Shown here: piece by piece, positions 49,998 to 64,000 of the stretch
Position numbering within the stretch: the first letter of the stretch is position 1
Layout: every line of letters begins with the position of its first letter
NCBI GenBank assembly: GCA_945863885.1
Contig: CAMAZY010000014.1
Location: forward strand, 500-64,499
Origin: an uncultured Clostridia bacterium
GTDB taxonomy: Bacteria > Bacillota > Clostridia > Oscillospirales > Acutalibacteraceae
DNA length: 64,000 nt
Reading direction: 5' to 3'
Position numbers and translations under genes: made by a program
The notes under the pieces: generated by a model
The model's database searches: none
Told to the model about the DNA's origin: nothing
The model's input: the letters and a program-made list of their open reading frames with translations, nothing else

Positions 49998-50544
49998 CGT
50001 ATACACCCTCCTTAACAAGATAAGCTTTCAGTTTCTGTCTCGTCCTTGAAAGCCTTTTATGTACGGTGTTTTCGCTCAGACCGAATTCTTCGGCAAGAAC
50101 TGAAGTCTCACAGCAAAACCAGTACCGCTTGACAAAAAGCCGCCGGTTTTCGCTGTCAAGCGTATCCAAAAAGCTGTCAATCAGCTTGCCGAGCCGCTTT
50201 GAATCAAGATGCCTTTGCAACTCGTCACAGCCGATCGCTTCGTCAAGCTCTTCAAGCGGAATGGTGATTCCCGTCCGTTTGCGTGCCGTTTTTTCACGCA
50301 GTCTCTTAAGCGACAGGTTTTTCGCAATCCGGCAAAGAAACGCAGAAAGTGGGTCGGGCTCTTTCGGCGGAACGCTTTTCCACAAAGCGAAATAGGTGTC
50401 GTTTTCACATTCGGCGGCGTCCTCGTCGCTGTTTACAATGTTTTTTGAAAGAGAGAAAAGCAATTTTCCGTATTTTTCTTTCGCTTCTTTCAGTCCCTGC
50501 TCATTCCGGACAAAAAGGAGAGAAATGATTTCGCTGTCCGACAT
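49990..50544 (-). CDS. ECF-type sigma-70 family RNA polymerase sigma factor
   Basis: Start at ATG 50544 after AAAGGAGG. Region 2 (DAAECENDTYFALWK) and region 4 HTH (SVLAEEFGLSENTVHKRLSRTRQKL). Confidence 0.85.
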   Translation of the reverse strand: MSDSEIISLLFVRNEQGLKEAKEKYGKLLFSLSKNIVNSDEDAAECENDTYFALWKSVPPKEPDPLSAFLCRIAKNLSLKRLREKTARKRTGITIPLEELDEAIGCDELQRHLDSKRLGKLIDSFLDTLDSENRRLFVKRYWFCCETSVLAEEFGLSENTVHKRLSRTRQKLKAYLVKEGVYDE

Positions 50545-50638
50545 AAGAAGACCTCCTTTCACTTTTTCGGGCGGGTTCGGATTATATGTGTCACCCTATA
50601 GATACCGTTTGCGTCTCGTTTCTGACACGCATAGTATG

Positions 50639-50838
50639 TAACAGATGTTGGATTTTAGATGTTAGATGTTAGAATCGGTCGCGGGTTTCCTTTGTGCCAA
50701 AGGAATAGTTCAACCCGCAGAGTCGGTTTTTTCGTGTCGGGAAGCCGGTAGATTATAAGCGGAGGGAACCTTTGCGGCTTCGGGGAAAACACTTCCGCAG
50801 GCGGCAAAAGTGCGGCTTCGCCGCACCCGGGCGCCTTA
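50639..50838 (+). repeat. Modular intergenic element, copy 1 (candidate structured RNA; strand unresolved)
   Basis: Five heptads (taaCAGA tgtTGGA tttTAGA tgtTAGA tgtTAGA), then the blocks cggtcgcg, cgcagagtcgg, ccggtagattataagcggaggga and gcggcaaaagtgcggcttcgccgcacccgggcgcctt. All are shared with 61139-61416. Confidence 0.7.
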
Positions 50839-50991
50839 CTTCCCATCGGCACCGGTTACGTTTCATTTTATCATTTTCCCCATCGGTTGTAAATCGTCTG
50901 CAATATCGGCCGACAGGCAAAAATGTACTCGGATTGTCACAAATTAACAAAAAACTTCCCTTTATTTACTTTAAGGTGTTGCTTTGGCTCA

Positions 50992-51020
50992 TTGACAGAA
51001 ATTTTGACAAAGTGTATACT
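50992..51020 (+). promoter_or_regulatory. Candidate serA promoter
   Basis: TTGACA (50992-50997), 17-nt spacer, TATACT (51015-51020). Confidence 0.55.
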
Positions 51021-51074
51021 TTATATAATGATATATTTTTCGATTTACCCAAACAAATATTTACGGAGGAAGCC

Positions 51075-52247
51075 ATGTATAACATTCTTACTCTCAATTC
51101 CATTTCACCGAAAATCAATACACAGCTTACAAACGACCGCTTCAATGTTTCTTCGAGTATCGAAGATCCCGACGCTGTCGTTGTCAGAAGCTTCAATATG
51201 CACGAAACCGAGCTTGGCGAAAACCTGAAAGCCATTGCAAGAGCGGGCGCCGGCGTCAACAATATCCCGGTTGACAAGTGCACCGAAAAGGGTATCGTTG
51301 TTTTTAATTCACCCGGAGCGAATGCAAACGCTGTTAAAGAGCTTGCGCTTTGCATGATGCTTATTTCTTCGAGAAACGTACTTGACAGCATCGACTGGAC
51401 AATGTCCTTAAAGGGCGGCGGAGACGCTGTGACAAAGACTGTCGAAAAGGGCAAGGGTGCTTTTGTCGGTCACGAACTCAAAGGAAAGACCCTCGGCGTT
51501 ATCGGACTTGGCGCAATCGGCTCTCTTGTTGCGCAGACGGGCGTTGATCTCGGCATGAAAGTCATCGGCTGTGACCCGCACCTTACGATTAACGCCGCTT
51601 TGAAGCTTTCGAACGCCATCAAGGTCGTCACCGACGAGGACGTACTTATCAAAAATTCCGACATCATCTCTGTTCATGTTCCGCTTTGCGACGAGACGAG
51701 ATATAAATATAACGACGCTTTCATCTCAAAGTGCCGCAACGGCGTGATTCTTTTGAATATGTCAAGAGCGGAAATCGCCGACCCCGACGCCATCAAGAGA
51801 GGCATCGCCGACGGAAAGATTGCCAAATACGTCTGCGACTTCCCGACCGACAACCTGATCGGTGAAAAGGATGTTATCCTGACGCCGCACTTAGCCTCCG
51901 GCACCTACGAAGCCGAGGACAACTGTGCGCTTATGGCGGCGGAAGAACTCAAGAACTATCTGCTTTACGGCAACATCAAAAATTCCGTTAACTTCCCCGA
52001 GTGCTCGCTCGGTTATCTTGAAAGCAAAACAAGACTTTGCATTTTCCACGAAAACAAGCCGACGCTGATTCAGCAGATTACTCATCTCGTTTCCTCAACC
52101 GGTGCCAATATCGACAACATGATAAGCAAGGCAAGAGGCACCAAGGCATATACAATGCTTGACGTCGGAGCCGAAGTCAGTTCCGACACAAAAAAGAGCA
52201 TTGAAAAAATCGACGGTGTTGTCAGGGTTATCAGTATTGAAAAGTAA
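51075..52247 (+). CDS. serA: D-3-phosphoglycerate dehydrogenase with a C-terminal ACT domain
   Basis: Start at ATG 51075, 5 nt after GGAGGAAG. The track 5' extension runs through the promoter and the repeat. GLGAIGSLVA NAD fold and HLASGT. Confidence 0.85.
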   Translation: MYNILTLNSISPKINTQLTNDRFNVSSSIEDPDAVVVRSFNMHETELGENLKAIARAGAGVNNIPVDKCTEKGIVVFNSPGANANAVKELALCMMLISSRNVLDSIDWTMSLKGGGDAVTKTVEKGKGAFVGHELKGKTLGVIGLGAIGSLVAQTGVDLGMKVIGCDPHLTINAALKLSNAIKVVTDEDVLIKNSDIISVHVPLCDETRYKYNDAFISKCRNGVILLNMSRAEIADPDAIKRGIADGKIAKYVCDFPTDNLIGEKDVILTPHLASGTYEAEDNCALMAAEELKNYLLYGNIKNSVNFPECSLGYLESKTRLCIFHENKPTLIQQITHLVSSTGANIDNMISKARGTKAYTMLDVGAEVSSDTKKSIEKIDGVVRVISIEK

Positions 52248-52266
52248 ATCATTTTTATCACCAAAA

Positions 52267-52290
52267 AGCCGTGCGGAAATCCGCACGGCT
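52267..52290. terminator. Hairpin shared by convergent serA and the EF-G paralog
   Basis: agccgtgcgg-aaat-ccgcacggct. T/G-rich tail on the + strand, and an A-run at 52263-52267 giving a T-run on the - strand. Confidence 0.7.
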
Positions 52291-52339
52291 TCTCGGTTTG
52301 TGTGTGTTGTGTGTTTATCTTGAAAAAAGTTGATAGCAA

Positions 52340-54409
52340 TTATTCGTCGGCTTCTGCCTTTGCGTCCTCGATGACCTTTTGCGCAACGTTGCCCGGTGCG
52401 TCCTCATAGCGGACGAAGGTCAGGCTGTAATGTCCTCTGCCGGCGGTGACCGAACGCAGAACGGTTGAAAAGTCGCCCATTTCCGCCATCGGAACTTCGG
52501 CAACAAGCTCCTGCATCTTCGGCTCGTCAGCGGCGCCCATGCCGAGAACTCTGCCGCGGCGCTTGGTTACATCGCCCATGATGTCGCCGAGGTTTGCGTC
52601 GGGGATATATGCTTTCAGCTCGCCGATCGGTTCAAGGATAACGGGGTTCGCCTGCGCCATGCCGTTTTTGTAAGCAATCTTTGCGGCGGTGCGGAACGCC
52701 ATATCGTTCGAGTCAACCGGGTGGTAAGAACCGTCGTAAAGAACAGCCTTAAGACCGACAACCGGATAACCGGCAAGCGGACCTTTCTGAATCGCTTCCT
52801 GAAGTCCCTTTTCAACGGCAGGGAAGTAGTTCTTCGGAACGGAACCGCCGACAACCTCGGTTTCGAAAATCAGCTCGTCGCCGTCGTGCGGCTCAAAGCG
52901 GATCCATACGTCACCGAACTGGCCGGAACCGCCGGACTGCTTCTTATGTCTGCCCTGAACCTGACAGCTCTTTCTGATGGTTTCTCTGTATGCAACTTTC
53001 GGAACCTTAAGGCCGATTTCAACGCCGAACTTTGTCTTAAGCTTTGCGATAACGATATCAAGATGCTGTTCGCCGAGACCCGAAAGCACCATTTCTCTTG
53101 TTTCTTCGTTATTGACAAGCGTGACGGTCGGATCCTCGCCCATGATACGGCGAAGTCCCGAGGCAACCTTGTCCTCTTCGCCCTTCTTCTTAACAACGAT
53201 TGCCATGGAAAGCGACGGCTTCGGGAAGTCAACGCCCTTGAGCTTAACGATATTCTTCGGACTGCAGATCGTGTCGCCCGTTGCAAGACCGGAAAGCTTT
53301 GTGATAACACCGATATCGCCGGCTGTGATAGCGGAGACGTCCTCCTGCTTGTTGCCTCTTACGGAAATCAGCTTGCCCATTCTTTCGCTCTCGCCCGTTC
53401 TTGCGTTGTAAGCCGGAACGTCGGCGGAAAGCTTACCGCTGATGACCTTGACAAAGGACATCTTACCGACAAACGGGTCGGCAACGGTCTTAAAGCAGAT
53501 CGCCGCAACGGGACCGTTCGGGTCACACTTGACGTCGACCTCGTTGTCGTTTTCGTCAAGTCCCTTTTCGTTTGCCGCCGTAAGCGGATTGGGAGCGGAA
53601 TAAACGAGTGCATCAAGAAGAAGATCAACACCGTCCATATTGTAGCCGGAGCAGGCATATACGGGATAAATCTCACCGCTTTCGACGCCCTTGGTAAGAC
53701 CGTCGATGATTTCTTCTTTCGTAAGTTCTTCACCGTCGAAGAATTTCATCATCAGATCGTCATCAACGGAAGCGACCGCCTCCATGAGAACGTCCTTCAT
53801 TTCCTGAATGTGATCGTCTTCAGGCATACTGACTTCGGCCGCCTTGCCCTTGTTGTATTCGAAAGCCTTGTTGGAACAAAGATTGATGTAGCTGACTGCC
53901 TTACCGTCAACCATATGCGGAATAACGACGGGGCAAAGCTTAGTGCCGATGGCATCTTTCAAAGCGTCAAAGGTCTTATAAAAGTCACGGTTTTCACCGT
54001 CAAGCTTTGTGATAACAAAGAATTTGGAAAGTCCTCTTGCGTCGGCGGCTTTGATGGCCTTTTCCGCACCGACGTCAAAGCCGGAGCCTGCGGAGGTTAC
54101 AATCAGAGCACAGCCTGCGGCTCTCATAGCCTCATATACGCCGCCCTCAAAGTCGAACTTACCGGGAGCGTCAAGAAGATTGATTTTGGTATCTCTCCAT
54201 TCAAGAGCCGCTACGGCGGTCGAAAGAGAACACTGGCGCTTCTTTTCTTCGGCGTCAAAGTCCATGACGGTGTTGCCGTCGGCTACTCTTCCGAGTCTGT
54301 CGGAAGCACCTGTAATATAAAGCATTGCCTCGGCAAGGGTGGTCTTGCCTTTTCCGGTGTGACCTGCGATGGCAACGTTTCTGATTTTATCGGCGCTGTA
54401 AGTTTTCAA
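52340..54409 (-). CDS. Elongation factor G paralog
   Basis: G1 motif AGHTGKGKTT, switch II DAPGKFDF, G4 motif TKLD, and EF-G domains II-V. 689 aa. Not in a str-operon context. Confidence 0.85.
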   Translation of the reverse strand: MKTYSADKIRNVAIAGHTGKGKTTLAEAMLYITGASDRLGRVADGNTVMDFDAEEKKRQCSLSTAVAALEWRDTKINLLDAPGKFDFEGGVYEAMRAAGCALIVTSAGSGFDVGAEKAIKAADARGLSKFFVITKLDGENRDFYKTFDALKDAIGTKLCPVVIPHMVDGKAVSYINLCSNKAFEYNKGKAAEVSMPEDDHIQEMKDVLMEAVASVDDDLMMKFFDGEELTKEEIIDGLTKGVESGEIYPVYACSGYNMDGVDLLLDALVYSAPNPLTAANEKGLDENDNEVDVKCDPNGPVAAICFKTVADPFVGKMSFVKVISGKLSADVPAYNARTGESERMGKLISVRGNKQEDVSAITAGDIGVITKLSGLATGDTICSPKNIVKLKGVDFPKPSLSMAIVVKKKGEEDKVASGLRRIMGEDPTVTLVNNEETREMVLSGLGEQHLDIVIAKLKTKFGVEIGLKVPKVAYRETIRKSCQVQGRHKKQSGGSGQFGDVWIRFEPHDGDELIFETEVVGGSVPKNYFPAVEKGLQEAIQKGPLAGYPVVGLKAVLYDGSYHPVDSNDMAFRTAAKIAYKNGMAQANPVILEPIGELKAYIPDANLGDIMGDVTKRRGRVLGMGAADEPKMQELVAEVPMAEMGDFSTVLRSVTAGRGHYSLTFVRYEDAPGNVAQKVIEDAKAEADE

Positions 54410-54835
54410 TATGATTACCTCCCTGAGCTTTCGGAAAACACAAAACCGAAGCCCGTTTATATTTTGACAAACGGTAAATCCGCCTGCTTTTTTTCAGTCA
54501 CTTATAGATACGCTTCGTAAACTAACGGTAACTTGTATCATTTTACCATAATATCAACAAAAAATCAAACTGATTTATCACTAATTTTGTGCATTGTTTT
54601 TTGTTCATGCTGTACAGTTCAGACGGTTAAAACAGAAAACCTGTAACCTCAACTATTATCTTTTATCTGTTATCTATTCATTAAGCTGTCTTCCGGCTCG
54701 GGCAGTCAAGTGAAAGAATAGTTCAAACCACCTCGACCGGTGGCATCGAACTACGATCCCGGGATCTCCGTTTCAACACAACAAAATCACAGCCCGGAAA
54801 ATTTCTTCCGAGCTGTATGCTGTTCGATATTTGTT

Positions 54836-57589
54836 TTACTCGGTGCGAAGTGCTTCGACCGGGTCTTTTTTCGCCGCCATTCTCGACGGTACCAAACCGG
54901 CAATAAACGTCAGGAATACGCTGATTGCAACAAGGATTACACCGTCAATAAACGGTAATACGGCACCGACGGTCGTACCTGTCAGATGGTTGAGTATCAG
55001 ATTTATCGGGATTTCTATCAGTATCGTCATCAGAATACCGACCAGTCCCGCACTGAAGCCGATGATGACCGTTTCGGCGTTGAACACGTTGGAAACGTCC
55101 ATCTTCGACGCACCGATACTTCGTAAGATACCGATTTCCTTTGTTCTCTCGATAACCGAAACGTAGGTGATGATTCCGATCATGATCGACGAAACAACAA
55201 GGGAAATGGCAACGAAGATAATCAGCGTATAGGAAACGATGTTGATCGCCTGCGTGGCAAGGTTCATCGCAATACCGATGTAGTCGGTCGGCCGGATCGT
55301 ATATTCGGAATGACCGTCCTCAGTCACCTTGTTGTTGTAGTAGTCGATCATTTCGTTCAGCTCGGCTTTGGTTTCGAAATCCTTCGGATAAAGGGAAATG
55401 GAGGTCGGGCTGTTTTCATCGCAGTAGCCTAAGGTTTCATAGGTCTTATCAAGGGAGCATTCGGCGTTTATCGTATCGATATAGGCCTGCTTGAGAGCGA
55501 GAACCTGTTCGTCGGAAAGATAGCCTTCCATCAGCTTCTTTTGCAGATCAGACATATCGCCGAAATTGAACAGCGAGGACATATCCATGATGTCGACCTG
55601 AGAAAGATCGATGTTTTCCGCCATGCTCATGAACGGCGAGATATCAAGATAATCCATGTTGATGTCGTTGAGATCAATATCAACAAGATCGAAGTCGTTC
55701 ACCGTCTTATCGAAGAATTGCTTGCCGGTAATGACGTCCTTTTTGGGGTTGCCGAGCTGTTCTTTGACAACGGTTGCTTCTTTTGTCCTGCTCATGACGT
55801 AGTCCATCAGCTCGGGTGTATAGCCGATGCTGCCGGCGGCAAGGGAAAGTACGTTGTCCTTTGACGGACGGATGATGCCGACGATGCTGATGTCAAGTCC
55901 TTTTGCAACAAGGTCTTTTACATAAAGGTCGTTATCTCTCATGTCTTTCCAAAGACCTGTTTTTTCGTCCTTGACCATATAGTCGGGGCTTAAAACAAGC
56001 TTGAACTTCATATTGAGAATATCATCGTAGGTGTATTTTTCTGCTTCCGCCTCTTCGAGCTGCTCGCCTTTTGTAATGGCGCTGATAAGATTGGAGGTAA
56101 ACTGTTTCTGATCCTTGAGGCCCAAAGCGTAAGCCACAAGCTCGTTGATTTCGTTGTTGCCGTCGACAACAAGAACAACCTCGTTATAGGCGGACGGAAG
56201 CTTTCCGTAAACGATGTCATAATGCTCGCTGATGCTTTCGTTGTCGCCGACAAGCTGTTTCCAAAGATTGGCGTAGCTGTCAAGATCGACAAAGCCGCTT
56301 ACCATATCCATACTCGCTCCGCCGCCCGATGAAGCGAACGTATCCATAAGCGTGCTCGGATTAACCTGAACAACACCTTGTGAGGTGTCGGCCTTATATA
56401 TGTTGAGCGGTGTGGAATAATTGATCTGAACATCGTTGCAAAGAGAATTGAATTTTTCCTGATTGTCATCGATGTATTTTTTGAAGCTTTTAAGATTGTT
56501 CGCCGACGACTGGGCGATAAACGCATTGACCATGGTGTCAAAGGACTTGTTGACATAAATCTGATCAAGTTCGTGGTCAACCCCGTTGAGCGGACTTAAG
56601 CCCAAAGCGGTATTCATCAGACTGTCGGTGTCCATAGCCTCTTTTTCGACCGACATCGGGTAAAGCAGCAGCGCATCGCTTTCTACTTTGGCGATATATC
56701 GGTTAATACCGGTCTGTAACGCAAGAACAAGTGCAATACCGATGATGCCGATTGAGCCGGCAAAGGCGGTAAGCAGCGTTCGCCCTCGCTTCGTGAAGAG
56801 ATTCCGAAGACTCAGCGAGAAAGCTGTCCGCATGGACATGGACGGTTTTTTGCCCTTTGCTTTTTCTTCTTCGGCTTTTTTCTTTTCGTTTTCAAAATCA
56901 GCCGCTTCCGGCTTAAACGGATTCGAGTCGTCAATGATCCGGCCGTCGAAGCATTTGATGATCCGGTTGGCGTACTGATACGCAAGATCGGGGTTGTGTG
57001 TTACCATGATAATCAGCTTATCCTTGGCGATCTCTTTTAAAAGCTCCATGATCTGGACGCTTGTTTCGCTGTCAAGAGCGCCGGTCGGCTCATCGGCAAG
57101 AATGATATCGGGGTTGTTGATGAGAGCACGGGCGATGGAAACACGCTGCATCTGTCCGCCGGACATCTGGCTCGGACGTTTGTTGATGTGATTTTCGAGT
57201 CCGACCTTTTTCAGCGCTTCGATGGCTCTTTCCCGTCTTTCCTTCTTGGAAACGCCGGACAGGGTAAGGGCGAGCTCAACGTTGGCAAGTACCGTCTGAT
57301 GCGGAATCAGGTTATAGCTTTGGAAAACAAAACCGATGGAATGGTTACGGTATGTATCCCAATCGTTGTCGGTAAAGGTCTTGGTTGACTTTCCGTTTAT
57401 GATAAGGTCGCCGCTTGTGTAGCGGTCAAGGCCGCCGATGATGTTGAGCATTGTTGTTTTTCCGCAGCCGGACGGACCGAGAATGGCAACGAACTCATTT
57501 TCTCTGAAATTGACGCTGATGTTTTTCATGGCACGGACGGTTGTGTCGCCCGTAACGTAGTCTTTGATTATATTTTTTAATACCAGCAT
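54836..57589 (-). CDS. Fused MacB-type ABC transporter (ATPase plus FtsX-like permease with an extracytoplasmic domain of about 480 aa)
   Basis: Walker [10 protein letters not shown], signature MSGGQMQRV and Walker B IILADEPT. Then TM1, a long loop, and three C-terminal TM helices ending [10 protein letters not shown]. Confidence 0.88.
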
Positions 57590-60457
57590 TTACTGCACCT
57601 CCTCGTTTGACTGTGTGTTGTCGTCTGTTTGCGGGATGTTCTGCGGTCTGAAGTTCTCGCCGGCTGTGGCTGACTGCGGAGAGAACATACGTCCTTCGCT
57701 CAAAGCAGATACGCCATCCGTTCCTTGTCCTGCCGCCTGCTGCGCTTTCAGCTTTTCCTGTTCTTCAAGATAACGTCTTCGGATTTCAAGCCTGTACTGT
57801 TCTATTTCGGCTTCGTGCTTTTTCTTCAGCTTCTGTTGCCGTCTTTCTTCAAGACGGTCAAAAATGACCTCTCTTTTGATGATGCAGACGACTGCCGCCG
57901 CTAAAAGCAAAACAACCAGAATGCCGAAAATCACCTTGCCGACCGCACTCTTTTTCGATTCGACATAAATGATAGTCGGGGTATAATCTTCGTTTCCGAC
58001 GGTGTTGGAAACCGCTCTGTCACGGAAGAACAGTTTGTAAAGCCATTCGATGGTTTCGTCTACTGTCATTTTTTCCATTTCGGAGCCGATGTTCGACGAA
58101 TAGGTTTCAAACATATTGTTGCCGCCGCCTTCGGACGAATTGCCCGCCATCATGCCGGTCAGAAAATCGGCATTTTCCGGATCTTTCATTCCGGTTACAA
58201 AATAGCGAAGCAGTGTCACCATGACTGCCGGCTGGTCAGCTTTTACATAATAAGCGTCTACCGGATTTCCCTGATAGGTCCGCTTGCTTGCAATTGTTTC
58301 AAGCTGACCTAAGGGGCCGAGTTTTTTCAGATCCGGTGCCGGAAGCTTCATGCTGTCTTTCATCATGTCGGGAATCATCGAGGAAACTTCGGAAAGAATA
58401 TCAAGATTCTGAAGCTTATCAAGTCCGAGCTGATCGGTGCTGACAGAAAGCTTGTTTAAAAGATCCGTTACGGGAACAAGAAGATTATTGATACACTGCG
58501 TCAAAGAGCCGTCGGACAGAAAACAGATCATATTCGGCAAAATCTCAGTCAGTGTATAAATCGGCTTTTCGGCGATTTTATTCATCAGAGCCACAATCGG
58601 AGCGACAATGTTTTTGACGCAGGCGTTTTCGCTTTCGTCCGCTTTGAATTCGGCGTAGGTTTTGATGGATTCCGACGGACAGCCGAACGCTTCAAGCATC
58701 GGAATCACGGCGGTGTTGTAGCCGCTCGTTCCGCAAAAGCTGATAGCGCCGAGCAGTTCGATTTTTCCGCCCCGTAAAAGCATATTGAGCATCGGCTCAA
58801 GCGGACTTAACGCCGCTGTCAGCGCCTTTTCAAAGCCTTTGCTGTCGCCGGCGGCAAAGCCCCAGTTGATTTCGGCTTTCCCTGCCTTTTCCCATGAACT
58901 GTATTGAGAAAGAACGGCTTTCGCCCGATAATATTCCGAGCCGAGCGAAGAAGCAAAGGCTGCGGGGGACGAGGGAAGCGAAAGAAGCTTTGCGGCGTCT
59001 TTCATTTCGTCCGAAGAAAGCTGACCGTAAAGCATACTGACAAGTGCCGTAACGGTGCCTGACGAGAAAAGAGACACTTTTACCGCCTGAGAAATGCTTT
59101 TATATTCTCCGCTTTCAGCGATGAATTCGCTCATGGTTTTGTCGATTCCGTCGACGACCTTCTGAAAGTTATCTTTGGTAAGATTCGGCGTATAGGTGAC
59201 GCTTCCGGGTGTAAATGCGGGCGCCGCCCACTGATATTCCGTGTCGGTGCCCTCCTGTTTCGTCAGAAGCTCAACCAAAAGGGCCAAAATCTCGTCTGTA
59301 TTTTTATTGAAAAGAGAGTCGATAACCGGCTTCATCTGCTCGGCTTCTTCACCGCCGAACTCAGACAGGAGACTGTCCTTATTCATTTTTGCCGTTTCCA
59401 AAAGCCACGAGAAAAGAACGACATACGCTTCCCCTTTGTTGGCGACGACCTTGCCGTTTTGTACTGTTCCGCATGAGGCTAACAGCTCGGTGTCCAGCTC
59501 GGCAAGCTTCATATCCCCAGAGGAGGTGAAGGACGAAAGCAAAGAAGAAAAGCCGCTTTCTCCGTCCGCTGTGCCTTCGCCGCTTCCGCCCATAAGAGAA
59601 GAAAGGGAAGATCCGGAAAACAGGGTGATGTAGCCGCCGATTCCGACTTTAAGCGGATTGATGAGTGCGTTCATACAGTCGTCCATTCCGCCGTTGTTCA
59701 TAAAGTAAGCGATGTTCGGTCCGATTTCACAAAGTGTTTTTGCCGGCGCGTCAAGCACTCTGTCGAGAAGGGAAAAGACCGAATCGACGATGTTTTTTAT
59801 CATTGTACTCCGGTCGGCATCGGCATCGGCTTTGAACTGGCTGTTCGATGTTATTTCGGTACAGCCGAGTGCGTCAAGCATGGGCACGATCCCGTTCTGA
59901 TAACCGTCATCGCCTTTGACGGTTATAAAGCCGCGTCGATAAGTGCCTGAGCACATGATGACGTAAATCAGCTCATCAAGCGGTGTAAACATGGAGGCAA
60001 GGGCATTTTTGAAGCCCGTTTTATCGCTGACGTTCCATGCCGCACCGTCAAGATTGACACTGTTCCAATCGCTTGCCGAGGAAAGAGCCTGCGATACCGA
60101 CGGATAGGCCGTAAGAGCGGACGCAACATTTTTTGTTGAAACGTCGACACCGAGAACCGAAAGTGCATTTTCCTGCTCCCCGAAAGAGGAGTAAATACCG
60201 ACAAGAATCGACGAAAGCGTTTCGTCCGAATACAGCATCGGCATGACGAGTTTATCCAGTGTGGTGTTTTGGAATTGCTTGAGCACATTTTTGATAAGAA
60301 TATCGGTCTTGTCAATGCTTTGCTCTGCTGTCTGTTCGGTCACGCCCTGTGGGTATGTGACGCCGGCCGCAAGCGACGGTAAGGCGGCTAACCAGATAAT
60401 ACTCAGACAAAGCAGAAAACTGACCGCTTTTTTAAATACCGTTTTCAGAATGATCAC
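57590..60457 (-). CDS. 955-aa surface protein: signal peptide, internally duplicated ectodomain, C-terminal TM anchor and a charged cytoplasmic tail
   Basis: Signal peptide ...WLAALPSLAAG. Repeats at about residues 70-270 and 460-665. TM helix VIFGILVVLLLAAAVVCII (residues 842-860). Tail EERRQQKLKKKHEAEIEQYRLEIRRRYLEEQEKLKAQQ. The TAA stop abuts the ABC gene ATG. Confidence 0.7.
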   Translation of the reverse strand: MIILKTVFKKAVSFLLCLSIIWLAALPSLAAGVTYPQGVTEQTAEQSIDKTDILIKNVLKQFQNTTLDKLVMPMLYSDETLSSILVGIYSSFGEQENALSVLGVDVSTKNVASALTAYPSVSQALSSASDWNSVNLDGAAWNVSDKTGFKNALASMFTPLDELIYVIMCSGTYRRGFITVKGDDGYQNGIVPMLDALGCTEITSNSQFKADADADRSTMIKNIVDSVFSLLDRVLDAPAKTLCEIGPNIAYFMNNGGMDDCMNALINPLKVGIGGYITLFSGSSLSSLMGGSGEGTADGESGFSSLLSSFTSSGDMKLAELDTELLASCGTVQNGKVVANKGEAYVVLFSWLLETAKMNKDSLLSEFGGEEAEQMKPVIDSLFNKNTDEILALLVELLTKQEGTDTEYQWAAPAFTPGSVTYTPNLTKDNFQKVVDGIDKTMSEFIAESGEYKSISQAVKVSLFSSGTVTALVSMLYGQLSSDEMKDAAKLLSLPSSPAAFASSLGSEYYRAKAVLSQYSSWEKAGKAEINWGFAAGDSKGFEKALTAALSPLEPMLNMLLRGGKIELLGAISFCGTSGYNTAVIPMLEAFGCPSESIKTYAEFKADESENACVKNIVAPIVALMNKIAEKPIYTLTEILPNMICFLSDGSLTQCINNLLVPVTDLLNKLSVSTDQLGLDKLQNLDILSEVSSMIPDMMKDSMKLPAPDLKKLGPLGQLETIASKRTYQGNPVDAYYVKADQPAVMVTLLRYFVTGMKDPENADFLTGMMAGNSSEGGGNNMFETYSSNIGSEMEKMTVDETIEWLYKLFFRDRAVSNTVGNEDYTPTIIYVESKKSAVGKVIFGILVVLLLAAAVVCIIKREVIFDRLEERRQQKLKKKHEAEIEQYRLEIRRRYLEEQEKLKAQQAAGQGTDGVSALSEGRMFSPQSATAGENFRPQNIPQTDDNTQSNEEVQ

Positions 60458-60980
60458 CCCTTATTGGTTCGTCTGTGTCAGCCGGGTTTTCCGGCTTGGT
60501 CTCATTGTTTGTGTCCGGCTTCTCGGATTGATTATCGGCATCGTTCTCTTGCGTTTCGGAAAGTTTTTCATCGAAGCCGGTACACTTTTTTAAGATACGC
60601 AAAAACTCTCTTGCATCGTCTTCTCCTAATTTTTCAAGCAGTGCCTGTGCTCGTTTGCTCACGGCTTCGCTTATGGACTCAACAAACTGTTTTCCCGCTG
60701 CTGTGATCGTTACCGTGACCCGCCGCTTATCTTTTTCGTCGCAAACCCTTTCAACAAGCTTCTTGATTTCCAAAGAGCGGAGCATGGCGGCAATTCTTGC
60801 CGCGGAAACGCCCAAGTCTTCGGCGAGGGCACCGGGCGTGCTTTTTCCGCCTGACGCAATCAACTGAAGCAACAGCGCATTTTCACCCTTGAGGTTGATT
60901 TGCAGGAAATTCAGTGCGTTTTCTCTTGCTGCAAACGCAATTGTTTTCAGGGTTTCCTCAAGGATTTCCTCTTTCATCAT
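60432..60980 (-). CDS. MarR-family transcriptional regulator with an acidic C-terminal tail
   Basis: Start at ATG 60980, 8 nt after GGAGG. Winged helix PGALAEDLGVSAARIAAMLRSLEIKKLVERVCDEKDKRRV. The last approx. 45 aa are Asp/Glu/Asn-rich and overlap the next gene by 26 nt. Confidence 0.82.
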   Translation of the reverse strand: MMKEEILEETLKTIAFAARENALNFLQINLKGENALLLQLIASGGKSTPGALAEDLGVSAARIAAMLRSLEIKKLVERVCDEKDKRRVTVTITAAGKQFVESISEAVSKRAQALLEKLGEDDAREFLRILKKCTGFDEKLSETQENDADNQSEKPDTNNETKPENPADTDEPIRGDHSENGI

Positions 60981-61080
60981 TATTGCCGCCTCCTTTAAAA
61001 AATATTTAACGGTGTTAAACAAGTCGTTAACATTGTTAAGTACTATAGCACACACCCTATTAAAAATCAATAAAATAAAA

Positions 61081-61129
61081 ATTAAAAATAATAAAACTGC
61101 ACAAATTCTCGGCTTGGTATTTGTGCAGT
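61081..61129 (-). terminator. Terminator or attenuator hairpin between repeat copy 2 and marR
   Basis: actgcacaaat (61096-61106) / atttgtgcagt (61119-61129), followed on the - strand by ttttattattttt. Confidence 0.55.
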
Positions 61130-61138
61130 TTAATGAAA

Positions 61139-61416
61139 CAACAGATGTTGAATTGAAGATATTAGATTTTAGATGTTAGATATTAGAAGCGGTCGCGTTG
61201 GTACACGGTACTAAAGAAAACCCTCTGCCCGCAGAATCGGCTTTTGCGTGACGGAAAATCCGTAGATTATAAGCGGAGGGAAGCCGGGCGATCTTGGGCG
61301 AGTCGCAGCCACAGGCGGGACGGCGGCCGACAAAACCCTTTTTTGGGGTTTTGTTTTTGCCGCTGCCTGCGGCAGCGGCAAACGTGCGGCTTCGCCGCAC
61401 CCGGCCGCCTTGCCGG
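61139..61416 (+). repeat. Modular intergenic element, copy 2 (longer variant)
   Basis: Seven heptads (CAGA...TGAA, AAGA, then TAGA x4), then the same conserved blocks as copy 1. Carries an extra segment of about 80 nt with two hairpins (61331-61358 and 61359-61379). Confidence 0.7.
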
Positions 61417-61507
61417 AAATCCGCCTCTTCACACAATACCAAAAAAGGCAGATGACAGCTTCACGCTAATCATTATATTATATATATGCACGACCCGTGC
61501 CGGATTT

Positions 61508-62359
61508 TCAAAGCTCCCGCTTGAAGGCAAGACCGATGAAACCATCTGAACAGTATGTCGCCATACAACAGCCGGCTTCGGTCACCGTCACATCTTTTGC
61601 GCAGGAGACCTCTTTCACATAAGCGCAAAGCTCGTCGGCTTGCTTTTGCCTAAACCCGCAGACCGATAAAATCACACATTCGCTTCCGCCGTTTCCGATA
61701 TTTTCAAGCTTCCGGCCGAGAAATTTTTTCCGGGCACTGTCCGGGGTTCCCTTGTGCTTTTCCCCGACCGCCAAGGCACCGTCCGTAATATCGACGGACG
61801 GATAAAAGCCGAAAAGGTCTGAACCGGTTTTTTCGAGCGCCGTGCAGATTCCGCTTTTGTAAAGAAGCCGGGCGTCGCCGGCGAGGAAGCTTGTTTCGAT
61901 CTGTGCCTTGAGCGCCTCAACACCCGAAACGATTTCATCGGCGCTTTTTTCCTCGAGCCGCATTCTCGACGCTTCGAGGCATAAGAGCATAAGACCCGCC
62001 GAAACGGTCTGAGAGTCGACAACATGAACCGTTTCAAAAGCGTTTGCGGCGAAACAGGCGTTTTCGTAACACGGAAAAAGCTTTCCGGACGGGCATAGGT
62101 GAATCACGTCGTAGCCCTTTTCGACAAGAGAAGAGAAAACAAGCTTGTATTCCTGTGCGGATACCGCTGTGGCTTTCGGTATGCTTTTTGTCTCTTCGTA
62201 TTTTTCAAGCATCCGGCCCGGTGTGACGTCGATCCTGTCCTTGAACTGACTTTCCGCAATAAGAATATTCATCGGAATGACGTGAAGGTCATATTCTTTG
62301 GCAAGCGGTTTGCTGATGTCGGCGGCGCTGTCGGTGGTAATGGCAATTTTTCTTTTCAT
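61508..62359 (-). CDS. DegV-family fatty-acid-binding protein
   Basis: Start at ATG 62359 (MKRKIAITTDSAADI, the typical DegV N-terminus). Confidence 0.85.
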   Translation of the reverse strand: MKRKIAITTDSAADISKPLAKEYDLHVIPMNILIAESQFKDRIDVTPGRMLEKYEETKSIPKATAVSAQEYKLVFSSLVEKGYDVIHLCPSGKLFPCYENACFAANAFETVHVVDSQTVSAGLMLLCLEASRMRLEEKSADEIVSGVEALKAQIETSFLAGDARLLYKSGICTALEKTGSDLFGFYPSVDITDGALAVGEKHKGTPDSARKKFLGRKLENIGNGGSECVILSVCGFRQKQADELCAYVKEVSCAKDVTVTEAGCCMATYCSDGFIGLAFKREL

Positions 62360-62681
62360 AGCTGTAAGCGGCAGTCCCTGCGGCAAAGGCAACCTCTGAA
62401 AACCTCCCGGCACTCGTCACAGCACCCGACTAATACCGTCTTTGTTGTTAAAAATCCGGCATCATTTGTGCACTGTGCCGGGTACCGTCAGGCTTTCAGA
62501 GATTGTCAAAAATCGGACTGCCTTTCCTTTCTTCAAAATTAAATAGACATATCTTGTGTGATTGTTCTCTTTCATTTTATATTTTGTCCGAAAAATTGTA
62601 AAACTTTCATAAAACTATTGAAAATTCAGGAAAGAAATAGTAATATAATACTGTAATCTGATACAGAAAGGATTGATAGCA

Positions 62682-63887
62682 ATGTGGCAATTAAAGAAGG
62701 CATATTACAGAGCCTTTCAGAAAGTAATGAAAATTGCGATGTATGCTTTTGACTGGTCCGAGCCTCTTTTACTCGAAGGCCCCGGCGCCATCAAAAAACT
62801 TCCCGACCTCATCAAGTCAAAAGGACTCAAGAACGTTCTCATCGTAACCGATAAAGGCCTTATGAGCCTTCATATCCTTGACAGCCTTTTTGCAAAGCTT
62901 GAGGAAACGGGCATCGAATACGTCGTTTACGACGGCACACAGCCGAACCCGACGATCGACAATATCGAAGACGCACGTCAGCTCTACCTTGACAATAACT
63001 GTGAGGGTGTTATCGCTTTCGGCGGCGGCTCCCCGATGGACTGCGCAAAAGCTACCGCAGCAAGAGTCACCAACCCGAAGCTTCCCGTCAGAAAGATGAG
63101 AGGTGTTCTGAAGCTTCATCATAAGCTTCCGCCGCTCTTCGCCGTTCCGACGACAGCCGGCACCGGCTCGGAAACCACTCTTGCCGCCGTTGTTACCGAC
63201 CCGACGACGCACGAAAAGAACGCCATCAACGACCCGAGACTTCGTCCGAAGTATGCCGTTCTTGACCCTGAGCTTACGATCGGACTTCCGCCTCACATTA
63301 CTTCAACAACGGGCATGGACGCTTTGACCCATGCAGTTGAGGCGTATATCGGAAGAAGCAACGTCAAGTCAACCGAGCACTACGCTGAGCTTGCGACAAG
63401 ACTCATTTACGCAAACATTGAAGAAGTATACAATAACGGCAAGAATATCGAAGCAAGAAATGCGATGCTGAAGGCTTCCTATTACGCCGGAATGGCTTTC
63501 ACAAGAGCCTATGTCGGTTATGTTCACGCCATCGCCCATAACCTCGGCGGCTTCTACGGCGTACCGCACGGTCTTGCAAACGCCATTATACTTCCCTACG
63601 TTCTCGAATATTACGGCGAAACGGCACACGCAAGACTTGCCAAGCTTGCGGTTATTTCCGGCGTAAAGACCGACGGAACCGATGCCGAAAAGGCGGAAGC
63701 CTTTATTGAGTCGATCAAGCAGCTCAACCGCAATATGAACATCCCTGACAAGTTTGATATGATAAAGGAAGAGGATATTCCGACGATCGTCAAACGTGCT
63801 CTGAAGGAGGGCAACCCGCTTTATCCCGTACCGAAGATTATGGACGAGGCGGACTGCGAGGCTGTTATCAGAAGAATGATGAAATAA
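62682..63887 (+). CDS. Iron-containing alcohol dehydrogenase
   Basis: GGGSPMDCAK and the His cluster HAIAHNLGG...HG. ATG 62682 lies 9 nt after GAAAGGA. Confidence 0.88.
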   Translation: MWQLKKAYYRAFQKVMKIAMYAFDWSEPLLLEGPGAIKKLPDLIKSKGLKNVLIVTDKGLMSLHILDSLFAKLEETGIEYVVYDGTQPNPTIDNIEDARQLYLDNNCEGVIAFGGGSPMDCAKATAARVTNPKLPVRKMRGVLKLHHKLPPLFAVPTTAGTGSETTLAAVVTDPTTHEKNAINDPRLRPKYAVLDPELTIGLPPHITSTTGMDALTHAVEAYIGRSNVKSTEHYAELATRLIYANIEEVYNNGKNIEARNAMLKASYYAGMAFTRAYVGYVHAIAHNLGGFYGVPHGLANAIILPYVLEYYGETAHARLAKLAVISGVKTDGTDAEKAEAFIESIKQLNRNMNIPDKFDMIKEEDIPTIVKRALKEGNPLYPVPKIMDEADCEAVIRRMMK

Positions 63888-63920
63888 TTCTGCAATATGC
63901 CTTAAAACCAAAAATTCTGA

Positions 63921-63955
63921 AAACAGGTTTTCATTTCCGAAAGCCTGTTTTTTTA
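63921..63955 (+). terminator. adh terminator
   Basis: aaacaggttttc / gaaagcctgttt (one G-U pair), followed by tttttt. Confidence 0.75.
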
Positions 63956-64000
63956 TGAATAAAGACGGATTTTATTGCATTTGCCCGAATTTTGTTTACA

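Follow-up and report, generated by a model that had tools for sequence, protein, structure and literature searches.

What does a membrane ATPase do when it is encoded directly after a large surface protein that matches no family in the libraries we searched? The question is raised by a 64,000-nucleotide (nt) stretch of contig CAMAZY010000014.1, from an uncultured Clostridia bacterium (hereafter the window), whose open reading frame (ORF) list places three genes head to tail on the minus strand. They encode a MarR-family regulator, a 955-amino-acid (aa) protein that we call the partner, and a 917-aa ATP-binding cassette (ABC) protein in which ATPase and permease are fused. Our preferred answer, to which we assign a probability of about one half, is that in this gut bacterium, an Oscillospirales member of the Acutalibacteraceae type, they form an operon under repressor control that encodes an envelope machine of two proteins, with conditional envelope defence as its likeliest role. 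The three genes are:

60432 to 60980, minus strand: marR, encoding a 182-aa winged-helix MarR-family repressor (Pfam, ribosome-binding site and published gene calls).
57590 to 60457, minus strand: the partner gene, encoding a 955-aa type I membrane protein (ORF and topology).
54836 to 57589, minus strand: the ABC gene, encoding a 917-aa fused type VII (MacB-fold) ABC protein (Pfam, PDB matches, and an AlphaFold2 (AF2) model compared by Foldseek).

An earlier sequence-only reading of this DNA had described three tightly coupled genes at these coordinates, and the overlap and abutment that it reported are all found in the sequence. The marR stop codon (TAA, 60432–60434) lies inside the partner gene, which begins with a GTG at 60457, so the two genes overlap by 26 nt; the partner TAA abuts the ATG of the ABC gene, which is preceded by a GAGGAGG 8 nt upstream. 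The published gene calls agree on lengths of 955, 917, and 182 aa and name the ABC protein 'ABC transporter ATP-binding protein/permease [Oscillospiraceae bacterium]' while leaving the partner unnamed. With genes that overlap or abut in this way, marR, the partner gene and the ABC gene are a predicted single transcription unit. The GTG is the only canonical start of the partner gene, and a purine-rich AAGGGG directly abuts it, with no spacer, within the end of marR (60455–60470, minus strand). Translation of the partner is probably coupled to that of marR.

The pairing of partner and ABC holds across species. Our locus scan, for which [NDS]GYNTA[VI]IP in the second module of the partner was chosen as one of the two most conserved stretches, took one genome per species and yielded 80 loci, all in metagenome-assembled genomes (MAGs) of Acutalibacteraceae, Oscillospirales, or Clostridia from the gut of humans, ruminants, and other animals. 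An orthologous ABC gene directly follows the partner gene in every locus with more than ~1.2 kb of downstream sequence (74 of 74), and the remaining 6 of the 80 end at a contig edge; the linkage of partner homologues to ABC genes that the earlier reading had anticipated is thus present in all informative species. The ABC orthologues of these 74 loci are 47–95% identical in the extracytoplasmic domain, the partners only 35–50% identical across species, and in most cases the stop codon alone separates the two genes. The same arrangement recurs in four loci found through protein look-ups (L001–L004). The partner ectodomain evolves faster than the ABC: its mean distance is 0.59, against 0.43 in the extracytoplasmic domain of the ABC and 0.16 in its nucleotide-binding domain (NBD). 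The distance matrices of partner and ABC correlate in a mirror-tree comparison (r 0.68–0.83), which fits co-inheritance without shuffling.

These data bear on an alternative in which the two genes are transcribed together and their products form no complex: the ABC would be an independent resistance or efflux pump, and the partner an unrelated surface protein sharing its regulon. The more than 1,300 paralogous fused ABCs with a long extracytoplasmic domain adjoin heterogeneous genes or none, so an ABC of this type does not generally need this partner. We nonetheless consider the alternative improbable, given adjacency in 74 of 74 loci despite 35–50% partner identity, the abutting stop and start codons, and the presence on each protein of a conserved element specific to the linked subfamily (described below).

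Around this core the loci vary. A conserved fourth gene downstream of the ABC was not found, the largest cluster of downstream genes covering 17 of the 80 loci. A divergent MarR_2 gene and two type IV ABC exporter genes of the heterodimer type (ABC_membrane plus ABC_tran) adjoin the operon in 46 of the 80 loci (for example, L002:3059-7212); this regulator and its heterodimeric exporter pair are absent from the window.

What kind of ABC protein is this? Hydropathy places an NBD at about aa 1–225, a first transmembrane (TM) helix at aa 272–290, an extracytoplasmic domain at aa 291–788, and three further TM helices at aa 789–901. Its parts are:

56915 to 57589, minus strand: NBD, aa 1–225 (sequence, invariant columns, and NBD matches).
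55226 to 56719, minus strand: extracytoplasmic domain, aa 291–788, 498 aa (topology and AF2 secondary structure).
55592 to 55711, minus strand: subfamily-specific acidic 40-aa insertion, aa 627–666, within the extracytoplasmic domain.
54887 to 55225, minus strand: TM2–TM4, aa 789–901, the FtsX-type permease core (Pfam FtsX and hydropathy).

Pfam recognizes ABC_tran (E 7.7e-35) and, at aa 790–910, FtsX (E 4.9e-17, 62.5 bits against a cut-off of 25.5). The ATPase motifs are intact: Walker A GPSGCGKT, signature MSGGQ, Walker B with the catalytic glutamate (ILADEP, E167), and the H-loop histidine H198. The closest PDB sequences are MacB structures (5gko, 5nik, and 5lil; E 1e-65 to 1e-69), and the AF2 model (46-sequence alignment; predicted local distance difference test (pLDDT) 72.7) matches full-length MacB in Foldseek with E 1e-31 to 1e-25 and target-normalized TM-scores of 0.63–0.71. 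In the model, long helices at aa 268–309 and 770–824 flank the extracytoplasmic domain. By sequence and model the protein is placed in the type VII superfamily (MacB/FtsX/LolCE fold), and the proposed fusion of an ATPase to a MacB/FtsX-type permease is borne out by all three kinds of match. So is the unusual length of the extracytoplasmic domain, estimated earlier at about 480 aa and 498 aa by topology, which is roughly 2.5 times the size of the MacB periplasmic domain (~200 aa; PMC5985334). The 40-aa insertion within it is gap-free and conserved in 67 of 67 syntenic orthologues and is missing in more than 70% of 40 aligned paralogous fused ABCs.

More specific assignments did not hold. As MacB proper, the protein scores 292.7 bits against the NF007826 equivalog, whose cut-off is 966, and the best-matching stretch covers only residues 2–290 (NBD and TM1); no HlyD/membrane fusion protein (MFP) family member of the MacA kind is among the neighbours listed in the window or in L001–L004. 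As FtsE or FtsEX, it differs in having NBD and permease fused, and it reaches 189.3 bits against the TIGR02673 FtsE cut-off of 264.85. Matches to PADLOC defence-system models cover only generic ATPase and permease segments, and we rejected that reading.

The paralogous long-domain fused ABCs (>1,300 matches, ~35% identical in the extracytoplasmic domain) are widespread in Clostridia and appear to be uncharacterized as a class. Examples are L005:8001-10598, L006:8001-10544, and L007:8001-10538, whose neighbours are varied and mostly unannotated; in L007 a MarR gene lies upstream of the ABC gene and a gene for a 382-aa uncharacterized protein downstream. We considered whether the partners of these paralogues are relatives of the 955-aa protein and rejected this, since the neighbours in L005–L007 are heterogeneous and none matches the partner profile.

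The partner was described earlier as a protein with a signal peptide, a C-terminal TM helix, and a cytoplasmic tail, around an ectodomain in which no motif was recognized. The first three are as described (signal peptide aa 1–31, ectodomain aa 32–841, TM helix aa 842–860, tail aa 861–955), and the ectodomain proves to be built of two modules with conserved motifs:

60365 to 60457, minus strand: Sec-type signal peptide, aa 1–31 (boundary ...PSLAA/GV), with no lipobox (hydropathy and sequence).
59228 to 60364, minus strand: module 1, aa 32–410, conserved core aa 161–200 (duplication, conservation, and AF2).
58013 to 59227, minus strand: module 2, aa 411–815, conserved core aa 561–600 (GYNTAVIPMLEAFGC).
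58007 to 58069, minus strand: extracellular juxtamembrane signature, a helix at aa 797–817, MTVDETIEWLYKLFFRDRAVS, among the most conserved stretches of the partner.
57878 to 57934, minus strand: C-terminal TM anchor, aa 842–860 (hydropathy 3.39), a generic anchor of low conservation.
57593 to 57877, minus strand: cytoplasmic tail, aa 861–955, of which only the membrane-proximal basic stretch aa 861–880 is conserved.

The ectodomain is an internal duplication, with residues ~33–270 and ~417–660 being 27% identical over 246 aa (E 2e-27). Both module cores share the motif GYxxxxxPxLEAxGC, and the core of module 1 consists of a beta-hairpin followed by GYxxGxVPxLxALGC. The AF2 model (35-sequence alignment, pLDDT 72.8, predicted TM-score 0.60) shows two mostly helical modules with short beta-hairpins, and low-confidence linkers between and after them. 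N-terminal signal-like segments are found family-wide among the relatives of the partner. Both module cores have conserved cysteines at corresponding positions (...C-x-G...GYxxxxxPxLxAxGC; C169, C199, C329, C575, and C593 of the partner). In a strict anaerobe this is uncommon for a protein outside the cell; the cysteines might pair as disulfides or hold a metal or some other ligand.

It had also been proposed that the cytoplasmic tail, about 95 aa long, could contact the ATPase. Residues 862–908 form a single helix in the AF2 model, and the segment aa 881–955 is lineage-specific (gap fraction 0.55–0.81), with tail lengths in the family ranging from 7 to ~300 aa. Because aa 881–955 is missing from ~80% of homologues and tail length varies so widely, a conserved contact between tail and ATPase is unlikely, and we dropped this part of the proposal as a conserved feature.

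To what family does the partner belong? It has no match above threshold in Pfam, where the sole line is a HAMP_2 hit below the cut-off (E 0.029), and none in NCBIfam, PHROGs, or PADLOC. There is no PDB match by sequence (phmmer) or by profile, and the best Foldseek values of its AF2 model are E 0.29 (PDB) and 0.029 (BFVD), nothing meaningful. No diagnostic match was found to S-layer/SLH proteins, LPXTG adhesins, MFP adaptors, or Ebh-type FIVAR/GA repeats. The partner therefore stays outside the adhesin, S-layer, and other known families, in keeping with the sequence-only reading, with sequence, profile, and Foldseek searches all empty. A full-text literature search found neither the pairing nor the module described, an absence that is no proof of novelty. 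A type VII ABC with a dedicated partner is an already known pattern; as far as the libraries and full-text searches show, what is new is the partner family, the enlarged, insertion-bearing extracytoplasmic domain, and the operator described below.

A helical partner with no recognizable enzyme domain invites comparison with EnvC. In this alternative, the partner would be a noncatalytic, ABC-driven activator of a peptidoglycan hydrolase or other wall enzyme encoded elsewhere. It has the helical, nonenzymatic character that such a role would call for, and FtsEX–CwlO with SweCD and FtsEX–PcsB offer precedents in Firmicutes (PMC6705773 and PMC6355983). We regard this explanation as a long shot: in Pfam and NCBIfam the partner shows no hydrolase, LytM, CHAP, or NlpC/P60 domain, no conserved gene lies downstream of the ABC, the ABC, unlike FtsX, combines the fused MacB architecture with a 498-aa extracytoplasmic domain (and scores below the FtsE cut-off), and a ligand-type repressor would be unusual for a housekeeping division function.

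We return to the envelope machine under repressor control and to the evidence on its regulation. The control region contains the following elements:

61042 to 61070, minus strand: sigma-70-type promoter (consensus scan and sequence).
61027 to 61039: operator O1, a perfect palindrome TTAAC-AAT-GTTAA immediately after the -10 box, candidate MarR site.
61006 to 61018: operator O2, a perfect palindrome TTAAC-ACC-GTTAA between the -10 box and the ribosome-binding site, candidate.

The promoter has a -35 box TTGATT (61070–61065), a 17-nt spacer, and an extended -10 element TGcTATAGT (hexamer 61047–61042), and the same TTGAnn-17-TGnTATAnT layout is found upstream of marR in orthologous loci. The marR ATG is at 60980 and is preceded by the ribosome-binding site AAAGGAGG. 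Its product exceeds three Pfam cut-offs (HTH_27, 34.4 bits against 22.2; MarR_2, 32.5 against 27; MarR, 25.2 against 24.6) and matches no NCBIfam equivalog at cut-off. Beyond the winged-helix core it carries a C-terminal extension of ~40 aa (aa 143–182; 60432–60554, minus strand), acidic or polar and of low complexity (SETQENDADNQSEKPDTNNETKPENPADTDEPIRGDHSENGI); the 3' end of the region coding for this extension overlaps the start of the partner gene.

The centres of O1 and O2 are 21 bp apart. TTAAC-N3-GTTAA occurs twice in the 64-kb window, both times in this promoter, against 0.07 occurrences expected. Exact palindromes are present in 34 of 48 orthologous MarR promoters, 10 of which have two exact copies, and 45 of the 48 have the palindrome when one degenerate position is allowed in each arm; the MarR products of these loci are only ~30–50% identical to the one in the window. 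Across the 80 loci, 64 of 67 exact palindromes fall in the marR promoter region, 250–750 nt upstream of where the partner ORF starts. Two palindromes after the -10 box fit the layout of MarR autorepression, and we take them to be a candidate operator. The earlier proposal of MarR control thus gains from a conserved, promoter-specific palindrome and loses in generality, since the regulator is not always of the MarR type. Likewise, the expectation that partner homologues would pair with both an ABC and a MarR gene held in 74 of 74 loci for the ABC and in only 48 of 80 for MarR, counting homologues directly upstream of the partner.

In at least five species, a TetR-family gene stands in the place of marR (L047:4863-5471, L054:7009-7677, L056:9132-10001, L070:3043-3705, and L085:2762-3418), so that the regulator is swapped around a constant partner–ABC core. 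Repressors of the MarR and TetR families are typically released by ligands and control efflux and defence genes. This type of regulator, together with the frequent exporter neighbours, leads us to favour an inducible envelope-defence role.

How could such a machine work? Every characterized type VII ABC has a dedicated extracytoplasmic partner (PMC12646458; PMC5985334), and by analogy with this superfamily we infer that the ABC does mechanical work at the outer face of the membrane with the 955-aa protein as its extracytoplasmic partner (PMC5985334; PMC12646458). An envelope or small-molecule signal would release MarR (TetR in some species), and partner and ABC would be made together. An ABC homodimer would then hydrolyse ATP and pass the movement through its stalk helices to the extracytoplasmic domain, that is, act by mechanotransmission, with nothing passing across the membrane through the ABC. 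It would work on the outer face of the membrane, with the partner beside it in the membrane. The insertion at aa 627–666 and the juxtamembrane signature are the best candidate contact elements, and the likeliest contact would be between this insertion and the partner ectodomain, particularly the juxtamembrane helix at aa 797–817. The likeliest task would be to clear the outer leaflet, by extraction or expulsion, of some hydrophobic or amphipathic compound that acts on membranes (for example, a bile acid, a fatty acid, or an antimicrobial peptide), with the partner serving as extracytoplasmic adaptor or acceptor, as MacA/YknX, LolA, TesA, or EnvC do in other type VII systems.

Comparison with known systems shows where this model has precedents. 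MacB of MacAB–TolC (PDB 5gko, 5lil, 5lj7, and 5nik) likewise has an N-terminal NBD fused to four TM helices, an extracytoplasmic domain between TM1 and TM2, and intact ATPase motifs, and it is the best match in sequence and fold over the full length of MacB. The window ABC differs in its 498-aa rather than ~200-aa domain and in the 40-aa acidic insertion; moreover, no MacA/HlyD adaptor or TolC is listed in the Pfam annotation of L001–L004, and the window host looks like a sporulating Firmicute without an outer membrane. Closer in setting are YknXYZ and Spr0693–0694–0695 of Streptococcus pneumoniae (PDB 5xu1), which combine a MacB-fold ABC with a membrane-anchored extracytoplasmic partner in a single-membrane bacterium; such Gram-positive MacB-like systems are proposed to rid the membrane's outer face of toxic peptides or xenobiotics (PMC5985334). 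In contrast to these, the window partner is not an MFP (it has no lipoyl, beta-barrel, or hairpin domains) and is anchored at its C rather than its N terminus, and NBD and permease are fused in the window ABC.

FtsEX with EnvC, PcsB, CwlO, or RipC follows the same type VII logic, in which ATP-powered motion of the extracytoplasmic domain works upon a dedicated, largely helical extracytoplasmic partner and nothing is transported across the membrane. However, FtsE and FtsX are two proteins rather than one, the extracytoplasmic domain is small, the partners have hydrolase domains or govern them, and the system is constitutive and linked to division, whereas the window system has no hydrolase link and is under MarR or TetR control. 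In the type VII ABC YbbAP–TesA of Escherichia coli, the function was likewise worked out from a co-located extracytoplasmic partner, and hydrophobic molecules are proposed to be extracted from the membrane and handed over to it (PMC12646458). The YbbP permease, a fused double unit, has 10 TM helices, and the protein paired with it is a soluble esterase; the window ABC, in contrast, is of the 4-TM homodimer type, and its partner is nonenzymatic and membrane-anchored.

Several observations weigh against the defence machine as we have drawn it. We detected no resemblance of the partner to MFP adaptors, to LolA or EnvC/PcsB, or to any binding protein. Most of its invariant positions hold Gly, Pro, Trp, or Tyr, residues of a structural kind, and nothing in its conservation suggests a catalytic site. 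In the mirror-tree comparison the extracytoplasmic domain correlates with the partner no better than the NBD does, and no interface is singled out; the test does not discriminate, because all ABC regions correlate, as shared descent predicts. The regulator is not universal, the upstream gene in L001 being a non-regulator. What points to defence is solely the type of regulator and the neighbourhood, and all relatives are MAGs. Finally, the module also occurs in giant surface proteins, and no ABC gene is adjacent at the four multi-module loci examined, which hints that its primary role is structural or adhesive rather than in transport.

The giants came from a profile search of 1.84 billion cluster representatives, in which 751 relatives of the partner scored E 0.001 or better. 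Of the 150 best ones, some 40 have two modules and a length of 850–1,160 aa; most of the remainder are 1,400–7,700 aa long and give up to 22 module matches. These longer proteins carry signal peptides and, in many cases, a TM helix near the C terminus that is followed by a basic tail; entries of this giant family include P0170–P0318. One example, L008:1122-20483, is an uninterrupted ORF of 6,454 aa with 14 module matches, which the published gene call splits in two; its last two modules and TM helix align with the entire window partner. Among nine giants, Pfam found no credible domain (only sub-threshold lines without a matching stretch for P0170 and P0254, and none for the other seven). The juxtamembrane motif DETIEWLYKLFFRERAV is characteristic of the ABC-linked two-module partners; its strict pattern matches only 1 of 106 giant paralogues, and the giants examined carry a related but different element, ED[VI]D[SA]VIE[ML]L.

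The giants look like surface fibrils. Ebh of Staphylococcus aureus is a giant helical-repeat surface protein with a C-terminal membrane anchor. The same is true of Giant1–3 of Apilactobacillus (PMC12863079). The partner family resembles these in having tandem helical modules, a signal peptide, members as long as 7,700 aa, and, in many of them, a TM helix and basic tail at the C terminus. It differs in showing no sequence or fold similarity to a solved structure or Pfam repeat (FIVAR and GA included) and in having a larger module of ~400–490 aa, and the window partner is the minimal two-module form, the only one that is coupled to an ABC.

In three of the four multi-module loci, a protein of ~315–380 aa is encoded after the multi-module gene (L008:20483-21622, L089:8983-9948, and L092:10003-10950), with overlapping or closely adjacent starts. 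Those of L008 and L089 are N-terminally anchored and 60% identical, and the L008 protein has no Pfam match; this post-giant protein may be a different dedicated partner.

The giants give rise to the main rival of our reading. Here, the partner would be not an adaptor but the object acted on: a structural or adhesive surface protein, a two-module 'mini' version of the giant fibril-like proteins, whose conformation, oligomerization, wall exposure, or release is controlled by ATP-driven domain movements of the ABC, as FtsEX switches the states of EnvC or PcsB or as LolCDE extracts lipoproteins. Such a role would suit a module shared with signal-peptide-bearing, C-terminally anchored, fibril-like proteins of up to 7,700 aa, as well as partner residues whose conservation is structural rather than catalytic or ligand-like, and it would explain strict 1:1 coupling with translational linkage. 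It also has type VII precedents in helical partners under conformational control, FtsEX–EnvC and FtsEX–PcsB (PMC7668044 and PMC6355983). The giants, however, get by with no ABC gene next to theirs; a MarR or TetR regulator suggests induction by a chemical rather than a surface that is assembled constitutively; and the partner, being of type I, with a complete TM helix and a stop-transfer stretch of basic residues, lends itself poorly to extraction. On this evidence we hold the rival to be possible, though doubtful.

There is also a slightly more speculative reading. The ~400-aa module might be an undescribed surface family of Oscillospirales, built of 2 to more than 20 modules, whose two-module form was recruited as the obligate partner of a MacB-type ABC, so that ATP would drive conformational work on a membrane-anchored fibril unit. 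If true, this would be a new class of type VII machine, unlike the known transport or hydrolase-activation roles, which, on a chemical signal sensed by MarR or TetR, might switch adhesion or exposure at the surface or gate a route through the wall.

The operon matters for the following reason. Type VII ABC systems are understood by way of their partners (MacA–TolC, LolA, EnvC/PcsB, and, most recently, TesA), and every added partner brought a new envelope function to light. Here, an unannotated partner family is tied, across at least 74 species of abundant human and ruminant gut Clostridia, to a distinct subfamily of MacB-type ABCs, and the operon could reveal a new mechanism of envelope defence or surface switching in bacteria that are difficult to grow. 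Separate from the ABC–partner system, the giant-protein family is a lead of its own; these 'dark' proteins of several thousand residues, built from the module, point to a large part of the gut Oscillospirales cell surface that is still unexplored.

The operon is bounded on both sides. Its 3' end is marked by one further feature:

54788 to 54817, minus strand: intrinsic terminator-like hairpin of 13 pairs with a T-rich tail, 19 nt past the ABC stop codon.

Upstream of the operon lies a DegV gene with its own hairpin and T-run (61128–61097), and downstream a paralogue of the EF-G gene (52340–54409, minus strand), both unrelated to the operon. With unrelated flanking genes and its own promoter and terminator, the operon appears self-contained. 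An Rfam scan of window positions 50000–64000 found no RNA family. Between the operon terminator and the EF-G paralogue runs a 425-nt noncoding stretch (54410–54835), which would be the leader of the EF-G paralogue.

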